Shown here: positions 1,368-54,888 of the stretch, piece by piece
Layout of the letters: the number at the start of each line of letters is the position of its first letter
Position numbering within the stretch: position 1 is the stretch's first letter
NCBI RefSeq assembly: GCF_000026545.1
Contig: NC_011601.1
Length of the DNA: 64,000 bases
DNA from: Escherichia coli O127:H6 str. E2348/69
Lineage (GTDB): Bacteria; Pseudomonadota; Gammaproteobacteria; Enterobacterales; Enterobacteriaceae
Direction: 5' to 3' (one strand)
Made by a program: the position numbers and the translations under genes
Notes under the pieces: model-generated
Told to the model about the DNA's origin: nothing
Databases searched by the model: none
The model's input: only the letters and a program-made list of their open reading frames with translations

Positions 1368-2081
1368 TTACCCGCCTAAATACGCACTTCTCACCGCTTC
1401 ATTCGCCAGCAGCGCGTCGCCAGTATCGGAGAGCACTACATGGCCGTTTTCCAGCACGTAGCCGCGATCCGCCAGCTTTAGCGCCTGGTTGGCGTTCTGC
1501 TCGACAAGGAAGATGGTCATCCCCTGCTCGCGCAGTTGTTCGATGGTGTCGAAAATTTGCTGGATGATAATCGGTGCCAGCCCGAGCGATGGCTCATCAA
1601 GCAACAACAAACGCGGGTTACTCATCAAAGCGCGACCAATCGCCAGCATCTGCTGTTCACCGCCAGACATAGTGCCCGCTCGCTGAACACGGCGCTCATG
1701 CAGACGCGGAAACAGTTCATAGACCCACTTTATGCGCTCCTGGAACTGGTCGCGTTCGGCAAAAAAGCCGCCCATCGCCAGGTTCTCTTCCACCGTCATC
1801 CGCGAGAAGACGCGACGCCCTTCCGGGACAATCGCTACCGCTTCGCGCATGATTTTCGCCGTCTGCCAGTCGGTAATGTCTTTATCATCAAACACAATTC
1901 GCCCGCTGGTGGCGCGCGGATCGCCGCATAACGTGCCGAGCAAGGTGGTTTTCCCCGCCCCGTTCGCGCCAATGAGGGTGACAATCTCGCCCTGATTGAT
2001 ATGCAGGCTCACCTCATGCAGCGCCTGGATTTTGCCGTAGTGGGCGCTGACTTTGTCAAAGGACAACATGACTTTTTCCAT
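1368..2081 (-). CDS. livF: branched-chain amino acid ABC transporter ATPase LivF
   Basis: 237 aa from MEKVMLSFDKV; Walker A GANGAGKTT, ABC signature LSGGEQQ; ORF track extended 4 codons upstream by alternative start. Confidence 0.95.
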   Translation of the reverse strand: MEKVMLSFDKVSAHYGKIQALHEVSLHINQGEIVTLIGANGAGKTTLLGTLCGDPRATSGRIVFDDKDITDWQTAKIMREAVAIVPEGRRVFSRMTVEENLAMGGFFAERDQFQERIKWVYELFPRLHERRVQRAGTMSGGEQQMLAIGRALMSNPRLLLLDEPSLGLAPIIIQQIFDTIEQLREQGMTIFLVEQNANQALKLADRGYVLENGHVVLSDTGDALLANEAVRSAYLGG

Positions 2082-2082
2082 C

Positions 2083-2850
2083 TTATGCCTCACCTAAATA
2101 GGCACGGATCACGTCCGGGTTATTACGGATCTGCTCCGGTGTACCGTTTGCCAGCGGCGTCCCCTGATTGACCACGTAAATTCTGTCTGAAATCCCCATC
2201 ACCAGCTTCATATCATGTTCAATCAACAAGATAGTGATGTTGTGATGGTTACGCAGTTCGGCAATCAGCTCATCCAGCTCTTTCGTCTCTTTCGGGTTAA
2301 GACCTGCTGCCGGTTCGTCGAGCATTAAAATCTCCGGCTGCGTTACCATACAGCGGGCAATCTCCAGACGGCGCTGGTCACCATAGGCCAGGTTACTCGC
2401 CTGACGGTTGGCATGTTCCAGCAAACCAATGCGCTCAAGCCAGGTGGCGGCGCGGTCGAGCGCTTCGCTCTGGGCGCGACGGAAAGAGGGTGTTTTCAAC
2501 AGGCCGGAGAACAGCCCGGTTTTCAGTTGCTGATGCTGTCCCACCAGCAGGTTTTCAATCACCGTCATTTCACGGAACAGACGTACATGCTGGAAGGTGC
2601 GCACCACGCCCATGCGGGCAATTTGCTGCCCCGGTAAACCTTCCAGGTGCTGATCGCGCAGTAAAATGGTGCCGCCGGTGGGTTTATAGAATCCGGTCAG
2701 GCAGTTGAAGACCGTGGTTTTTCCGGCACCGTTAGGGCCGATTAACGAGACGATCTCCTGCGGGTACAGTTCAAGATTGACGTTGTTCACCGCCAGCAGG
2801 CCGCCGAAGCGCATCATCAGGCCGTTAACAGATAATAATGGCTGACTCAT
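2083..2850 (-). CDS. livG: branched-chain amino acid ABC transporter ATPase LivG
   Basis: 255 aa [11 protein letters not shown]...; Walker [10 protein letters not shown]; operon context. Confidence 0.95.
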
Positions 2851-4124
2851 GCCTGCTCTCCTTTTGCTGCGCCGTTTTTCAGCTTGAGTTGCGGGCGCGT
2901 CATGGGCAGCAAGCCCTGCGGACGCCAGATCATCATCAGCACCATCAAACCACCGAGCATTAACATGCTGTATTCGTTGAAATCACGCATCAACTCGCGC
3001 GATACCACCAGCAAAACAGCCGCCAGAATCACTGCAAACTGCGAGCCCATACCGCCGAGCACCACTATCGCCAGCACAAACGCCGATTCGGCAAAAGTGA
3101 AGGATTCAGGGCTGACAAAGCCCTGGCGCGCAGCAAACAACGTTCCGGCAAAACCGGCAAACGCAGCGCTGATGGTAAAGGCAGTCAGCTTGATACGACG
3201 CGGGCTTAAGCCCAGCGAACGACAAGCGATTTCATCTTCACGCAACGCTTCCCACGCACGCCCCAGCGGCATCCGCAGCAGGCGGTTAATGACAAACAGG
3301 CTTAACGCCACCAGCAGCAACGCCACCAGGTAGAGGAAAATGACGCGATCGGAGGGATCGTATTTCAGGCCAAAGAAATTACTGAACGTGTCCCAGCCGC
3401 CTTCACGGGCGGTACGGCTGAACTCGAGTCCGAAGAGCGTCGGTTTCGGAATCTGACTGATACCGTTCGGTCCGCCGGTAATTTCGGTGTTATTGAGCAG
3501 CAATATGCGCACAATTTCGCCGAACCCGAGGGTAACGATCGCCAGATAGTCACCGCGCAGACGCAGCACCGGAAAACCGAGCAGGAAGCCCGCCGCCGCC
3601 GCCATTAACCCGGCAATCGGCAGACAGGTCCAGAAGCCCAGACCGTAATAGTGATTGAGCAGCGCAAAAGTGTAAGCGCCGATGGCGTAAAAGCCGCCGT
3701 ATCCCAGCACCAGCAGACCAGAAAGACCAACAACCACGTTCAGCCCGAGACCGAGAATAATGTAGATCATGGTCAGAGTGGCGATATCCACCGTCCCACG
3801 CGACACCATAAATGGCCACGCCACTGCAAGCACCAGCAGCGCCACGAGGAACAGTTTCTGCTTCACCGTGGAGCCATCAATCGCGGGCAGAATAAACTTC
3901 GGCCCGGAAACGCTTTTTAGCCCTTTCTGGAAAGCAGGCCGCACAAGCTGGAAGAAAAAGACCACCGCCGTGCCGATAAACACCCACTGCCAACGGATCT
4001 CTGAAGCCGTGTCGACCACCAGTTTGGTGCCATCCAGCTCCAGTTGCACGCCCATAAAGACGCCCGCCAGCACAAAGAACATAGCGGCAGAGAGCAGCGC
4101 CATTGCAATATGCATCGGTTTCAT
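2847..4124 (-). CDS. livM: branched-chain amino acid ABC transporter permease LivM
   Basis: 425 aa polytopic membrane protein; 4-nt overlap with livG start. Confidence 0.94.
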
Positions 4125-5094: not shown

Positions 5095-6204
5095 TCACTT
5101 GGCTGCCGTGGATGAACCGTCGGCATGCCACTGGAAGACACCAAAATCGAATCCCTTAAGATCGCCTTTTTCATCCCAGTTCAGCGGCCCAATTACGGTG
5201 TTTGCACCGTTAGCTTTTAAATCTTTCACCAGCGCCAGCGGCTCATCGCTGCCAGTACGTTCAAGGGCAGTTGCCAGAGATTGCACCGCCGCGTAGGTGA
5301 TCCAGACATAGGGCCCGGACGGATCTTTCTTGTCTGCTTTCAGCGCATCAACGATGCCCTGGTTTGTCGGCTCCTGGTCATAGCGTTTTGGCATGGTGAC
5401 CAACATGCCTTCAGCGGCATCACCGGCAATGTTCGACAGTGACGCATTACCGACACCTTCCGGCCCCATAAACTGGGTTTTCAGGCCAACGGAACGGGCC
5501 TGGCGCAGCATCTGCCCCATTTCCGGGTAGTAACCGCCGTAGTAAACGAAGTCGATGTTTTCTTTTTTCAGGCGGGCGATCAGCGCGGAGAAATCTTTCT
5601 CTCCAGCGGTAATGCCGTCGAAGAAGACGACGTTGGCGTTAGCCGCTTTCAGCCCGTCCTGCACCGAACGTGCCAGCCCTTCGCCATACTGTTGTTTGTC
5701 GTGAATGATGGCGATGCGCTGGGGCTTCACCGTCTCAAGAATGTATTTTGCCGCCGTTGGCCCCTGGGAAGAGTCCAGCCCGGCAGTACGCATGATGTAT
5801 TGATAACCGCGTTGGGTCAGCTCCGGATTGGTCGCTCCCGGCGAGATCATCAGAATACCTTCGTCTTCATAGATATCTGATGCAGGTTGGGTAGAGGAGG
5901 AACACAGATGACCAATAACATATTTAATGCCGTCGTTAACGATTTTGTTGGCGACCGCAACGGCTTGTTTCGGGTCGCAGGCGTCGTCATATTCCACGCC
6001 AACCAGTTTATCGCCCTTAATTCCCCCTTTGGCATTAATGTCTTTAATTGCCTGACGCGCGCCGTTAAATTCCATATCGCCCCACTGGGCAATCGGGCCG
6101 GACATCGCGCCGACAACGGCGACTTTAATATCGTCAGCCATAGCGGTGTGTGAAATTGTCAGTGCAATCATCCCTGCGATGATCGTTTTCGCATTCCGTT
6201 TCAT
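5095..6204 (-). CDS. livK: leucine-specific periplasmic binding protein LivK
   Basis: 369 aa from [11 protein letters not shown] (ATG rc at 6204..6202); signal peptide then [14 protein letters not shown]; paralog of livJ product. Confidence 0.94.
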
Positions 6205-48419: not shown

Positions 48420-48510
48420 ACTCATCCATTGCCTGTCACGGCGCATGTCTCATTGTTAGATGACGACTATCTCACTCCGGCCAGAGCATCAGTTAACGGC
48501 ACCACCCGTA
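48420..48510 (+). ncRNA. agrA: putative agrA antisense sRNA (approximate bounds)
   Basis: First copy of a direct repeat (ttagatgacgactatctcactccggccagagca, about 48455..48490) that lies inside the dinQ 5' leader on the opposite strand; boundaries not determinable from sequence alone. Confidence 0.3.
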
Positions 48511-48573
48511 CTTCAGACCAGGACTTTGAAAGCGTTTATGCGCATTGCCAGAGTGAAAATGTCTCAGAACCAA

Positions 48574-48589
48574 CTGGATAATCATACAG
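48574..48589 (-). promoter_or_regulatory. LexA box in dinQ promoter
   Basis: Minus strand CTGTATGATTATCCAG, close to the CTGT-N8-ACAG SOS box consensus, about 190 nt upstream of the dinQ start. Confidence 0.6.
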
Positions 48590-48619
48590 TACTTGCGGGT
48601 TATAAAACCAGCATGTCCT

Positions 48620-48737
48620 TGCAATAGTTTCAGTATGGTATTAGCATTGATGCGTTAGATGATGGCTATCTCACTCCAGCCAGAGCCACCAACTCAGGGC
48701 TGAACAGTAAAAAAACCGACGCGAAGTCGGTTTTTTT
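48620..48737 (+). ncRNA. agrB: putative agrB antisense sRNA (approximate bounds) ending at an intrinsic terminator
   Basis: Second copy of the repeat (ttagatgatggctatctcactccagccagagcca, about 48655..48690) followed by hairpin ccgac gcgaa gtcgg and ttttttt at 48709..48737. Confidence 0.4.
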
Positions 48738-48913
48738 ACGTCCTGATTCAGACCTCCTTTCAAATGAATGCCCAACGCTTAATTCACACCTACACCTTTC
48801 TCTACACTTACATATTCGTTAAACCATATGTGTTTTTGACTTGTCCGCTTTGGTTTGTAACGCTGGTGGCGCTGGCGCTACACCTCTCTTTCACATCGTA
48901 ATGAGATACTGAT

Positions 48914-49339
48914 ATGAGCAACATTACCATTTATCACAACCCGGCCTGCGGTACGTCGCGTAATACGCTGGAGATGATCCGCAACAGCGGTACAGAACCG
49001 ACCATTATCTATTATCTGGAAACACCACCGACGCGCGATGAGCTGGTAAAACTCATTGCCGATATGGGGATTACCGTACGCGCGTTGCTGCGTAAAAACG
49101 TCGAGCCGTATGAGAAACTGGGCCTTGCAGAAGATAAATTTACTCACGATCAGTTAATCGACTTTATGCTTCAGCACCCGATTCTGATTAATCGCCCGAT
49201 TGTGGTGACGCCACAGGGAACTCGCCTGTGCCGCCCTTCAGAAGTCGTGCTGGAAATTCTGCCAGATGCGCAAAAAGGCGCGTTCACCAAGGAAGATGGC
49301 GAGAAAGTGGTTGATGAGGCGGGTAATCGCCTGAAATAA
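48914..49339 (+). CDS. arsC: arsenate reductase ArsC (glutaredoxin-coupled)
   Basis: 141 aa MSNITIYHNPACGTSRNTLEMIRNSG... with catalytic Cys in HNPACGTSR. Confidence 0.95.
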   Translation: MSNITIYHNPACGTSRNTLEMIRNSGTEPTIIYYLETPPTRDELVKLIADMGITVRALLRKNVEPYEKLGLAEDKFTHDQLIDFMLQHPILINRPIVVTPQGTRLCRPSEVVLEILPDAQKGAFTKEDGEKVVDEAGNRLK

Positions 49340-49387
49340 AGCGGCTATATTCCCCCACAGGTTGTTAGAAAAATGCGCTTTATTTAT

Positions 49388-49488
49388 GTCGGATGCGACG
49401 CTGGCGCGTTTTATCCGACCTACAAAGTTATGATAATTCGATGAATTGTATGTTATTTGTAGGCCTGACAGTCGTAGCGCATCAGGCG
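49388..49488. repeat. BIME (two REP units in inverted orientation)
   Basis: gtcggatgcgacgctggcgcgttttatccgacctaca ... gtaggcctgacagtcgtagcgcatcaggc. Confidence 0.75.
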
Positions 49489-49955
49489 ATTTTGCTATTT
49501 ACACAGTACTCCCTGCGTGAGATTCCAATTATCGCGTCCAGCATGGTGTATCAGTGAGCTGCTTAGTTATCAGCGATACAGTGCAGCAGTTTAAAGATGT
49601 ACTGGATTATGATCTATCAGTGGTTTACACAATAAATAATTTCAACATACGTTAACCTATTTTATTATTACATATCTAAAACATCACAAAAATATCACTT
49701 CACACACTATCAGAGAACATCATACCTTTTTAAAACGAGCATTTTCGATAGTTGTTAACGTTTTCTTTTGCGATATTATTATTGCCTTTTTTTGCACTCA
49801 AATATTACCAGATGGAAATAAAAGAGAAGTCAAAGGTAATTATATCAGGAAGATATGACGCATTATATTTACTGTATGTAGAAGAAAATCCATTCCTGTT
49901 CTAATTATCCAATTTAAAAATCTTAGCATAAAACAAATGATGAATAAGGAATGTT

Positions 49956-50340
49956 ATGTCAATTGACTTTACCCCAGGTGTAATAAATACATATAACGGT
50001 GATATTTATAACTGCACAACAAATACCGATAATGTTAAAACGCCAGACACACCGAAGTGGCCTTGTGATAACCGGGAAGAACAACACCCCATGAATGCCC
50101 CATTCTCTGGAGAATGGATACACCTCTGAACAATTTGATTTAGCGCAACAACGCCAACAAATTAATGCGTGCCATACGAACACCACATATACAAATGCAG
50201 ACTACTCAAAGTTGAGGCTCAACTTGTAAGTCTTATTAATAACATTGAAACGATAAGCTCGACACCACTTCCGCAAAAGACACAATCAATACTTAATCAG
50301 ATAAATAACATTAGACACGAAAAGATTAAAAACCTCTGAA
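49956..50340 (+). pseudogene. degenerate AT-rich coding remnant (possibly yhiS-like); frameshifted fragments
   Basis: 58-codon [46 protein letters not shown]... then protein-like reading ([35 protein letters not shown]) continues only in other frames with stops; low GC. Confidence 0.3.
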
Positions 50341-50522
50341 TATAGATTATGGAACAATGGATACTCATGCCACGCCCAAAAATTAACTGAGCTCAACTAA
50401 ACAGAAGAGATATAAACATCAGACAGGTTTACGTTACTATCAGGCATATCGCCTCAGAATCAGATGAAAACTATAAAGAAATATCTATTATGGTTTTAAT
50501 ATTTGTTGATAAGGATAGTAAC

Positions 50523-51089
50523 ATGAACATGACAAAAGGTGCACTCATCCTCAGCCTTTCATTTTTGCTTGCCGCATGTAGTTCAATTCCGCAAAATATC
50601 AAAGGCAATAACCAACCTGATATTCAAAAAAGTTTTGTTGCTGTTCATAACCAGCCGGGGTTATATGTTGGTCAACAAGCGCGCTTTGGCGGGAAGGTTA
50701 TCAACGTTATCAATGGCAAAACGGATACGTTGTTAGAAATCGCTGTATTACCGTTGGATAGCTATGCGAAGCCTGATATTGAAGCCAACTATCAGGGCCG
50801 ACTGCTCGCCAGACAAAGCGGCTTCCTTGATCCAGTGAACTATCGTAATCACTTTGTTACCATCCTCGGTACCATTCAGGGTGAACAACCTGGCTTTATC
50901 AATAAAGTCCCGTATAACTTCCTGGAAGTGAATATGCAGGGCATCCAGGTGTGGCATTTGAGAGAAGTGGTTAATACCACCTATAACTTGTGGGATTACG
51001 GCTATGGTGCATTCTGGCCGGAACCGGGCTGGGGGGCTCCTTACTACACCAATGCGGTGAGTCAGGTAACACCTGAGCTGGTCAAATAA
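50523..51089 (+). CDS. slp: outer membrane starvation lipoprotein Slp
   Basis: 188 aa from MNMTKGALILSLSFLLAACSS (lipobox LAAC). Confidence 0.94.
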   Translation: MNMTKGALILSLSFLLAACSSIPQNIKGNNQPDIQKSFVAVHNQPGLYVGQQARFGGKVINVINGKTDTLLEIAVLPLDSYAKPDIEANYQGRLLARQSGFLDPVNYRNHFVTILGTIQGEQPGFINKVPYNFLEVNMQGIQVWHLREVVNTTYNLWDYGYGAFWPEPGWGAPYYTNAVSQVTPELVK

Positions 51090-51828: not shown

Positions 51829-52857
51829 TTATGCAGTAACGCCTTCCGGTATCAACGAAGCAATTTGCTTACGCCATTGCGCTTGCTCCTGTTCACCTTC
51901 TGTACGTTGACCATAAAGTTGCGCTATCTGCGTACCATCATGGGCAAACAATTCCAGACTGGTTACGTGACCATCGCTGGTCGGTTTACGGGTAACCCAG
52001 GCTTCAGCAATGCTCTCTTCTAATAGATGAAGGGTAAACGTCGGGTTGAAAATATTCAGCCAACCTTTCATTGGCACCACTTTTTCTACCACACCGGTGA
52101 AAATCTGTACGCAGCCACGGTTGCCAACAAACACCATGATTTCATTGCCATCCTGCTGTGCAGATTCAAGAATTTGCGCCAACGCACTGTTGGATACTTT
52201 GCAGGCCAAATCGTCTGCCACCAGATTGAACGCCTGTTGGCGCGTCAGGTTGTGGCGCTTGAGCAACGTAAAAAACTGATGAACGTCGGTCATCGCCCGC
52301 CACTCTTGCTCGACCACACTGGCATCGGCTCGCGTTTGAACAACTGGCGCATCAACGGCTTTTAACTCAAGCGGCGTATTCTCATCGGTGATAAACCGTG
52401 CCAGAAGCTCACTCCATGCCGCCATATCGGTATTGTCGGTGGCATAAACTTTTAGTAATGCATCGCCCTGATGATCAAAGAACTGAATACTCTGGCGTTC
52501 GCCACGAGCCGTGTTTTCTTTGATGTGGAAAACACTGGCCCATTGATTGAGAAACAGACGTAAATCCAGCGCGCGCGGATTGAGGATCAATCCGGCATGT
52601 CCGTTCAAATGCTGGTTTGTGAACGAGCCAACTTGCTCATGGACTGCATATTCATTACGACAAATACATTTGGTTTCACCAACGCTTTCCAGCGCCGCCA
52701 GAATTTCACGAATATCGCCGCGCATCCGCCACGCGTCGTGCGTGACGCGTGCAAATGCCAGTTCTGCTTCGCTGATATTCATTAAACCTGCGATGTCACG
52801 CGCGTACTTTCCGGGATTTTGTTCTTTTAACTCAAGCCAGCGTGTGTAGTGGTTCAT
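51829..52857 (-). CDS. chuS: haem oxygenase / haem degrading protein ChuS
   Basis: 342 aa MNHYTRWLELKEQNPGKYARDIAGLMNISEAELAFARVTHDAW...; downstream of chuA on the same strand. Confidence 0.93.
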   Translation of the reverse strand: MNHYTRWLELKEQNPGKYARDIAGLMNISEAELAFARVTHDAWRMRGDIREILAALESVGETKCICRNEYAVHEQVGSFTNQHLNGHAGLILNPRALDLRLFLNQWASVFHIKENTARGERQSIQFFDHQGDALLKVYATDNTDMAAWSELLARFITDENTPLELKAVDAPVVQTRADASVVEQEWRAMTDVHQFFTLLKRHNLTRQQAFNLVADDLACKVSNSALAQILESAQQDGNEIMVFVGNRGCVQIFTGVVEKVVPMKGWLNIFNPTFTLHLLEESIAEAWVTRKPTSDGHVTSLELFAHDGTQIAQLYGQRTEGEQEQAQWRKQIASLIPEGVTA

Positions 52858-52905
52858 TGTCTCTCTTCCTTCCAGATAAATGCCCCGAAATATCGGGGCA
52901 GATGA

Positions 52906-54888
52906 TTACCATTGATAACTCACGAAAATTTTTCCGTTACGACCATCCTGTGGGATGCCTTGCGGCGACCAGTACTCTTTATCGAAGGCGTTGCCCAATA
53001 CCAGAGTAGTGGTCATGCCTTTGAGCGCCTGCTGCCCTTGATAACTGACGTAGAAATCATTCACACCATAGCCAGGTTGTTTGCTGTAGCTGCTGCTGAT
53101 ATGTGTTGAGCGATCGGCAAACGTACCGACCCAACCAACAGAGAAGCCACTGTGAGCGATCGGAATATTCAGGGTACTGGTAACGGTATCCGGGTTAATG
53201 CTGGAGATATATTCCCCGGTATCGGTGTCTTTGCCGCGGGTACGGTTATAGGCCACATCAAGGCTAAACAGATCAGTGGTATATTTCGTCATCACATCCC
53301 AGCCCCAGATTTTGGCGTTCGGGACGTTATACGACATAGTTGTCGCCGCCGCGAAATCGACGGTCGTGGAGATATAATCTTTCGCTTTGGTATCAAAGTA
53401 GCTGGCTTTAAATTCCAGAGCATCATTGGACAACATCAGGTCATCAAAACGCAGCCCAAAACCGTACTCCTGAGTTTCGTTAGTTTCCGGACGTAAGTTC
53501 GGGTTTGGCACCCAATAGTTGGTATAGAAGCGACCAATCGAGAAGTGTTTAGAATCGTTATACATTTCGCCCATCGTCGGGGCGCGGAATGCCTGAGCAT
53601 ATGAGCCAAATAACATCAGCCAGTTGGTCGGGTTGATAGTCATCCCCGCACGAGATGACCATTTGTCGGCATCAACATCTTTGTAGCCGTCGCTGCTACC
53701 GCGATAACTGTCATAGCGGGTTCCGCCAAGCAGGGTAATCGGCAGATCGCGTAAGGTGATCTCATCTTGTAGCCAGCCAGAGCTAAAATCGATTTTTGCT
53801 TGCGGGAAGCCCGTCGTCGCGCCACCCGGATGTTGTTCCTGACGATAATACTCACCGCCATATGTCAGTAAGTGAGAAGCGAAACTGTCGGCAAATAGAG
53901 TGGAACGGTTCTCCAGCCTTGCTCCTTTTGTTATCTGTTCACGATACTCGCCTGAACTCCCCGTGTTTTGCGCATTAATACGGACTTCCGACCAGTAAAT
54001 TTTTGCATCTGCATTTAACCAGTCGTTACCCTGCGGGGCGAGTTTATAAGAAAGCTGCGCATCGCGTTGAATTGTTGAACGATCGACCATCGGGTTGCTG
54101 CTATCAGAAGCTTCAACGGTCTGCGGATTTTTTGGTTCACGCGCGTCGTTGTTGTAGTAACGCACTAAACCGCTCAGAGACTGGGCTGAATCAATTTGCC
54201 AGGTCCCTTTCGCCAGCATGTTATTAATGGACTCGTCATTCGGCGCGGTTTCACCATTGCTCTGGCGTAAATCACCCCGATCGCGACTGGACCAGGCCAC
54301 AATACCATCCAGATTTTCAGTTCGCCCAAACGCGCTCGCGCCTAATCCCAGGCTATGGTCCCCCGTGCCGCCAGTACCAAAGACACTAAAACCACTACTT
54401 TGTCCTTCCTGCAATAAATCTTTTGCATCGACCGTATCGTAGGAGATCACCCCACCCAGCGCGCCACTGCCATACAGTAATGCTGAAGGTCCGCGAACAA
54501 TCTCAACACGCTTGATCAGCGCCGGATCAAGAAAAGTACCATTCAGGTGTCCGGTATCCGTTCCCTGGCGAACACCATCGACAAGAACCAGCACGCCGCG
54601 ATGATCATAGCCACGCATATTTACATCCTGACCGTTGGTTCGTCCGGTACCATCAAGAGTAATTCCAGGAACATGACGCAGCAAATCAGTGGCTGAAGTA
54701 GCCGTTTGATTTTCAGGAGCGGAAGTGTCGATAACGCTGACCATCATAGGCGCTTCGAAGGAACTACGTGCATTCCCCGTTGCCGTAACGGTCATGGTTT
54801 CAGTAGCAAAAGCAAACGTTGGCAAGGTGGCAGAAACAGCCAAAGCCAACAAACTCAAACGCAACGAGGTAAATTGCGGACGTGACAT
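52906..54888 (-). CDS. chuA: TonB-dependent outer membrane haem/haemoglobin receptor ChuA
   Basis: 660 aa; signal peptide MSRPQFTSLRLSLLALAVSATLPTFAFA, TonB-box-like ETMTVTA, C-terminal ...KIFVSYQW terminal aromatic. Confidence 0.95.
   Translation of the reverse strand: MSRPQFTSLRLSLLALAVSATLPTFAFATETMTVTATGNARSSFEAPMMVSVIDTSAPENQTATSATDLLRHVPGITLDGTGRTNGQDVNMRGYDHRGVLVLVDGVRQGTDTGHLNGTFLDPALIKRVEIVRGPSALLYGSGALGGVISYDTVDAKDLLQEGQSSGFSVFGTGGTGDHSLGLGASAFGRTENLDGIVAWSSRDRGDLRQSNGETAPNDESINNMLAKGTWQIDSAQSLSGLVRYYNNDAREPKNPQTVEASDSSNPMVDRSTIQRDAQLSYKLAPQGNDWLNADAKIYWSEVRINAQNTGSSGEYREQITKGARLENRSTLFADSFASHLLTYGGEYYRQEQHPGGATTGFPQAKIDFSSGWLQDEITLRDLPITLLGGTRYDSYRGSSDGYKDVDADKWSSRAGMTINPTNWLMLFGSYAQAFRAPTMGEMYNDSKHFSIGRFYTNYWVPNPNLRPETNETQEYGFGLRFDDLMLSNDALEFKASYFDTKAKDYISTTVDFAAATTMSYNVPNAKIWGWDVMTKYTTDLFSLDVAYNRTRGKDTDTGEYISSINPDTVTSTLNIPIAHSGFSVGWVGTFADRSTHISSSYSKQPGYGVNDFYVSYQGQQALKGMTTTLVLGNAFDKEYWSPQGIPQDGRNGKIFVSYQW

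Follow-up and report, generated by a model that had tools for sequence, protein, structure and literature searches.

A decayed remnant of yhiS between arsC and slp in Escherichia coli O127:H6 E2348/69

The yhiS gene in K-12 and other Escherichia coli

The yhiS gene of Escherichia coli K-12 is a textbook pseudogene that lies between arsC and slp and is split by IS5/insH. Almost the whole gene is kept in K-12, with IS5 inserted after nt 746 and a frameshift in the 3' piece; in the K-12-like strain ER1709, yhiS accordingly appears as two pseudogene pieces flanking an IS5 transposase. Other strains carry the gene in different states. ST38-type strains encode an intact protein of 407 amino acids (WP_000020609.1), O157:H7 encodes a variant of 371 amino acids that is intact as annotated (WP_001303709.1), and ATCC 8739 carries a full-length but frameshifted yhiS, with the same layout matched by BL21 derivatives.

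Here we analyse the interval between arsC and slp in E. coli O127:H6 E2348/69, within a window of 64,000 nucleotides of contig NC_011601.1 (the window being the whole stretch of DNA that was analysed, to which all coordinates refer unless a reference locus is named). Positions 49340-50533 are 100% identical to E2348/69. An earlier examination of the letters and open reading frames alone (hereafter, the sequence-only reading) had placed this interval at the position of the K-12 yhiS pseudogene, and the IS5-split gene at that very place in ER1709 bears this out: the E2348/69 remnant is the same gene in the same arsC-slp position. Unlike in K-12, codons 132-407 are gone from E2348/69 through a 900-bp deletion, and the rest of the gene carries three small indels. 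Compared with intact YhiS (WP_000020609.1), residues 132-407 are absent, including a pentapeptide-repeat-like segment at about 208-257, and the part that is retained is frameshifted. The IS5 insertion in K-12 is independent of the E2348/69 lesions. Altogether, at least three or four independent events have damaged yhiS: the 900-bp deletion in B2-type strains, IS5 in K-12, a frameshift in BL21/ATCC 8739, and C-terminal truncation in O157. In TUM1881, an IS1 element takes the place of the whole yhiS region (positions 5118-5865 of reference locus L006), and the slp CDS measures 525 bp, its product being shortened at the N-terminus; this is another independent loss at the locus.

We interpret the E2348/69 interval, with a probability of about 0.93, as a stack of gene remnants devoid of a function of their own, joined to an intact slp control region, in which the yhiS stump is inert and progressively decaying. 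The feature as such is already known, both from the public annotation of E2348/69, where RefSeq/PGAP flags a pseudogene at 49956-50333 ('hypothetical protein; frameshifted; incomplete; missing C-terminus'), and as the counterpart of the K-12 pseudogene. Beyond tidying the annotation of the arsC-slp interval for B2-type E. coli, and giving the order of decay behind one 900-bp junction found in about one complete E. coli genome in five, the analysis has little significance; it otherwise bears only on the function of intact YhiS and on the cause of the strong divergence between yhiS alleles.

Composition of the interval and identity of the remnant

The interval is bounded on the left by intact arsC (48914-49339) and on the right by slp (50523-51089). 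It falls within a GC trough of 0.28-0.39 that extends over approximately 49450-50650, compared with about 0.50 in the flanks and 0.515 in the whole window. The sequence-only reading took about 1 kb of this DNA for degenerate coding sequence. The low GC, the shifting frames and the stops are all there, but the coding remnant accounts for no more than about 390 of the 1023 bases; gene scraps (49485-49610), the yhiS 5' region (49633-49955) and the spacer upstream of slp (50347-50522) make up the remainder. A search of Rfam yielded no families inside 49500-50522.

The remnant proper, delimited by aligning it with O157, ST38 and further B2 strains, occupies 49956-50346 on the plus strand and corresponds to codons 1-131 of 407. 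Its DNA is 87-94% identical to the full-length yhiS loci of O157 and ST38, and once its indels are repaired, 49956-50333 translates into a sequence that can be aligned with residues 1-127 of intact YhiS, the tblastn match to these residues of the ST38 protein having an E value of 3e-51. The position between arsC and slp, judged by the annotated neighbours, is kept in E2348/69, ATCC 8739, O157, ER1709, ST38, ST131, CFT073 and HH45. On homology and position together, we identify the locus as yhiS. The suspected decayed coding remnant thus has intact homologues elsewhere, namely, the 407-aa protein of ST38-type strains and the 371-aa protein of O157:H7. Relative to these, its frame is both disrupted and shortened, by the 900-bp deletion, the three indels and a premature stop, as is expected of a pseudogene.

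The lesions were mapped against the intact ST38 locus (L005). Three plus-strand ORFs follow one another in the remnant. The first, in the YhiS frame, spans 49956-50129, begins with MSIDFTPGV and encodes 57 amino acids up to the first in-frame stop at 50127-50129; the second, at 50095-50229, is in the +1 frame; the third, at 50169-50339, is back in the first frame. Both peptides quoted in the sequence-only reading are present, one in each of the first two ORFs. Comparison with the intact gene resolves this succession into an extra T at 50115 (a +1 insertion), the loss of 3 bp at about 50145-50148, and a -1 deletion after 50207, where a run of four A is reduced to three (AAAA to AAA). The frame pattern arises because the +1 and -1 changes cancel each other. 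Frameshift decay is therefore real, and the homologue search and frame reconstruction that had been proposed as a check produced both an intact YhiS and a map of three indels; the main lesion, the 900-bp C-terminal deletion, had been missed.

The deletion junction lies at 50346|50347, where homology to the left part of the reference stops at 50346 and homology to the right part starts at 50347. The missing segment corresponds to L005 3712-4611 and takes in yhiS from codon 132 through the stop as well as 69 bp at the start of the yhiS-slp spacer, which is 245 bp long. Low identity around 50333-50346 leaves the breakpoint uncertain by a few bases, and a further 1-bp indel near 50333 is possible, albeit uncertain. 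The distance from the yhiS start to slp was about 1470 bp before the deletion and is 567 bp after it.

The parent gene

In its intact form, yhiS has a GC content of 33.7% and an uninterrupted frame of 407 codons, and a comparison of two divergent alleles gives a dN/dS of 0.40; for these reasons, we read it as a real gene under weak constraint. Two intact E. coli alleles (L005 3319-4542 and L010 3001-4224) encode proteins that diverge by about 25%. The dS between yhiS alleles is 0.29 overall and 0.39 over codons 132-407, compared with 0.03-0.04, roughly ten times less, in the adjacent slp. Recombination from divergent sources and balancing selection are both possible causes of such deep divergence. 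The divergent alleles, the dN/dS of 0.40 and the repeated independent damage would fit balancing or fluctuating selection on YhiS, for example, as a host- or phage-interaction factor the loss of which is sometimes favoured. We consider such selection unlikely, and likewise the alternative of a rewiring of slp-dctR control in B2 strains by the deletion.

All YhiS matches come from sources named as E. coli or Shigella. ST38 and several large protein clusters contain the 407-aa form. A set of 1.84 billion cluster representatives includes one full-length YhiS cluster, and the other matches are fragments or three pentapeptide-repeat proteins; no relatives were found in this set beyond the 50% identity cluster. 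The three proteins are large and rich in PF00805, and they match YhiS residues 204-327 with E values of approximately 3e-5 to 2e-4 (phmmer). Like the pentapeptide-repeat (Rfr) proteins of PF00805, YhiS shows five-residue periodicity at residues 208-257 (FAGTN FIDFN MTGQN LSGFV LTLSR FYFED LLNIN FIDAN LCDTI FSHKE); the O157 protein, however, scores 12 bits where the Pfam cutoff is 20.2 (E 0.16), and the 407-aa allele gives no match. This segment is absent from the E2348/69 remnant and says nothing about the role of the latter. Comparison of YhiS with Pfam, NCBIfam, PADLOC, PHROGs and PDB sequences detected no significant family and no relative of solved structure, and an AlphaFold2 model of the intact protein, built from a 15-sequence alignment, was unusable (mean pLDDT 34, pTM 0.19).

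The sequence-only reading described a decayed gene that had been acquired horizontally. The decay is established, as detailed above, and foreign origin of yhiS is plausible. Its atypical composition (33.7% GC compared with 51.5% in the window) and its restriction to Escherichia/Shigella fit acquisition, although searches of phages, plasmids and cluster representatives turned up neither a donor nor a mobile vector, and no phage copy of yhiS was found. Three matches labelled as plasmids were rejected: these are records of 4.8-4.9 Mb, that is, mislabelled chromosomes.

The slp control region

To the right of the junction, 176 bp of the native yhiS-slp spacer are retained (50347-50522, plus strand), and these contain the putative slp-dctR control region. 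The retained spacer is identical to that of ST38 at 177 of 187 positions, and there are no differences in it among E2348/69, ST131 and CFT073, the flanking genes of which differ by 0.4-1.4%. Across 8 strains of divergent lineages, the 114 bp before the slp start (50409-50522) contain a single variable site, at 50451, and by far surpass every other part of the interval in conservation; the sequence between the junction and 50408 is as variable as the remnant. The conserved block probably comprises the slp-dctR promoter and regulator sites. The best sigma-70-like match, ATGAAA-16-TATTAT, is located at 50464-50491, and AAGGA precedes the slp ATG at 50523 by 7 nt. YdeO of K-12 binds within the spacer that precedes slp and acts as an activator of slp-dctR, though not of yhiS (PMC4222967). 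A search of 50300-50530 for the YdeO box ATTTCA-N9-21-TGAAAT gave best matches with 3 mismatches of 12. The slp promoter had been expected in the 3' part of the degenerate gene; the control region does map to the last third of the interval, but it is outside the remnant, in native spacer past the junction. The deletion stopped 176 bp upstream of slp, leaving the conserved block intact and sparing the slp-dctR control region, which lies on the margin of the acid fitness island. Judging from this conservation, slp expression should be unaffected by the deletion.

A different view of the same DNA is that the remnant and the AT-rich 5' region have been co-opted for regulation of slp-dctR, either as an H-NS nucleation site on the margin of the acid fitness island or by read-through from the yhiS promoter. 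DNA this AT-rich (27-38% GC over the remnant and 5' region, compared with the window average of 51.5%) is a classical H-NS substrate. Moreover, no convincing intrinsic terminator is apparent between the yhiS ATG and slp, and the deletion has brought the yhiS promoter about 900 bp nearer to slp. However, conservation is confined mainly to 50409-50522, whereas the remnant and the stretch between the junction and 50408 are no less variable than the rest of yhiS. In addition, over-expression of YdeO in K-12 induced slp-dctR and not yhiS, indicating that the two are regulated separately there (PMC4222967). Co-option of the remnant appears improbable, and an inert stump next to an intact slp control region is the reading that we retain.

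Distribution of the junction and order of the lesions

A 120-nt probe that spans the junction matches in a single piece in 1053 of the 5426 complete E. coli genomes, including CFT073, O25b:H4-ST131 and APEC IMT5155; going by strain names, we take these and similar junction-bearing strains to belong to phylogroup B2. With full-length yhiS as the query, 5416 of the 5426 genomes contain at least part of the gene, and 3998 show full-length coverage. The length of the match differs by group: it covers nt 1-746 in K-12 derivatives and only nt 1-380/388 in the junction group.

Strains that share the junction differ in what else has befallen the gene. HH45 carries the 900-bp deletion alone, and its ORF from the yhiS ATG is unshifted and encodes 128 amino acids. 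ST131 combines the deletion with the -1 change (ORF of 91 aa), and both E2348/69 and CFT073 have the deletion, the -1 and +1 changes and the 3-bp deletion (57 aa in each). Thus, the -1 frameshift is common to the three B2-type strains examined, and the +1 insertion and the 3-bp deletion are limited to E2348/69 and CFT073. As the junction is present in HH45 but the ORF of 128 aa there is unshifted, the 900-bp deletion is older than the frameshifts. The shared junctions show that it took place in an ancestor of the lineage of E2348/69, CFT073 and ST131, removing codons 132-407 along with 69 bp of spacer; the stump would then have decayed freely, step by step. That this decay was neutral is suggested by the nesting of the lesions and the differing lengths of the residual ORFs. 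Between the repaired remnant and intact alleles, dN/dS is 0.41-0.62, a range that is not clearly neutral; it is based on small counts (27-28 substitutions), most of the divergence being older than the inactivation.

The variation in the residual ORFs also bears on whether the stump could still yield a functional small protein, made up of 53 N-terminal YhiS residues and 4 out-of-frame ones and translated from the kept start codon and ribosome-binding site. Indeed, E2348/69 retains the entire 5' region, the AAGGA and the ATG (49956), all collinear with intact loci, and no stop interrupts the first 53 codons. Such differences among strains argue against a conserved product: those sharing the deletion would make proteins of 57, 57, 91 and 128 aa (E2348/69, CFT073, ST131 and HH45, respectively) with differing C-termini, and the three B2-type strains show several substitutions in 50087-50128, compared with none in the block upstream of slp. 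We regard a functional product of this kind as very improbable and adhere to the reading of an inert stump.

Still harder to credit is the proposition that the frameshifts are errors of sequencing or assembly and that the stump is in reality a single open frame. The -1 change does sit in a short run of A, where homopolymer errors readily arise, but the +1 and 3-bp lesions recur in the independent assemblies of E2348/69 and CFT073, the -1 change is found in ST131 as well, and the whole interval is matched at 99% identity or more by 407 genomes; two thirds of the gene would be missing even without the frameshifts. Finally, that the interval is plain AT-rich non-coding spacer with chance ORFs, the outcome that the sequence-only reading had tied to a lack of homologues anywhere, can be dismissed, even though short ORFs are common anywhere and YhiS falls in no Pfam, NCBIfam, PADLOC or PHROG family, in view of the E value of 3e-51 and of intact yhiS at the same site in thousands of genomes.

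Older gene scraps and the yhiS 5' region

Contrary to the sequence-only reading, the first 110 bp or so of the interval are not part of yhiS but derive from a lost ArsR/SmtB-ArsP gene pair. On the minus strand, 49485-49550 encodes the C-terminal 22 codons of an ArsR/SmtB-family (HTH_20) regulator, with the stop at 49482-49484. This scrap is 68% identical to the ST38 regulator (L005 1334-1630, minus strand; tblastn E 1e-6), the intact form of which matches Pfam HTH_20/HTH_5; its DNA aligns to L005 1323-1403, and in HH45, PGAP calls the same scrap a partial 'transcriptional regulator'. On the plus strand, 49563-49610 corresponds to residues 203-218 of a 333-residue ArsP_1-family permease. The match is short and weak (tblastn 62.5% identity over 16 aa, E 0.003) and is accompanied by a blastn patch of 96% identity over 23 nt to L005 2363-2385. 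Both genes, the regulator at L005 1334-1630 (minus strand) and the permease at 1738-2739 (plus strand), are intact between arsC and yhiS in the ST38-type loci L005, L010 and L011. O157, ATCC 8739 and K-12 have no intact regulator-permease module and align with the window across 49485-49610. On these alignments, 49485-49610 holds older scraps of a second arsenic-related module, one that most E. coli no longer possess.

The non-coding yhiS 5' region follows at 49633-49955 (plus strand; 26.6% GC), and a Shine-Dalgarno-like AAGGA immediately precedes the ATG. In O157 and ST38, the DNA upstream of intact yhiS is collinear with this region, as is that of ATCC 8739, at approximately 89-90% identity with small indels. 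Promoter-like matches, including those at 49752-49782 in this region, are no more common than in shuffled sequence (8 compared with 5.8 ± 2.2). A hydrophobic 50-aa ORF at 49752-49904 was considered as a gene candidate and rejected, being broken by indels at 49786 in HH45 and ATCC 8739.

Rearrangements in the neighbourhood

Between arsC and the interval, at 49380-49470, lie REP-type palindromic elements, with sub-threshold, REP-related Rfam matches to naRNA4 and ES036 at 49387-49466. These elements contain the sole terminator-like hairpin of the region (49387-49406).

On the far side of arsC, a deletion has removed arsR and almost the whole of arsB. Its junction at approximately 48850|48853 (within 48850-48914) joins position 1328 of the K-12-like locus L004 to position 3014, such that about 1685 bp are lost and the last 49 bp or so of arsB are left. 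Although intact, arsC is thereby deprived of its operon promoter and partners and comes directly after dinQ, a layout common to CFT073, ST131 and HH45. The dinQ toxin locus itself (48455-48850) has a single Agr antisense-RNA copy, detected as Rfam AgrB at 48655-48739 (91.5 bits). Two overlapping alignments to L004 (48200-48753 to L004 447-999, and 48639-48850 to L004 1117-1328) suggest that this copy is an agrA/agrB hybrid produced by recombination between repeats. In addition, the counterpart of window positions 48488-48653 is missing from CFT073 and ST131.

On the other side of slp, the heme-uptake genes chuS and chuA are located directly 3' of dctR (51829-54888), at the place where ATCC 8739 has yhiD-hdeBA; this is the chu insertion known from B2, D and E strains, in which it lies inside the acid fitness island. 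In HH45, the chu cluster is partly deleted.
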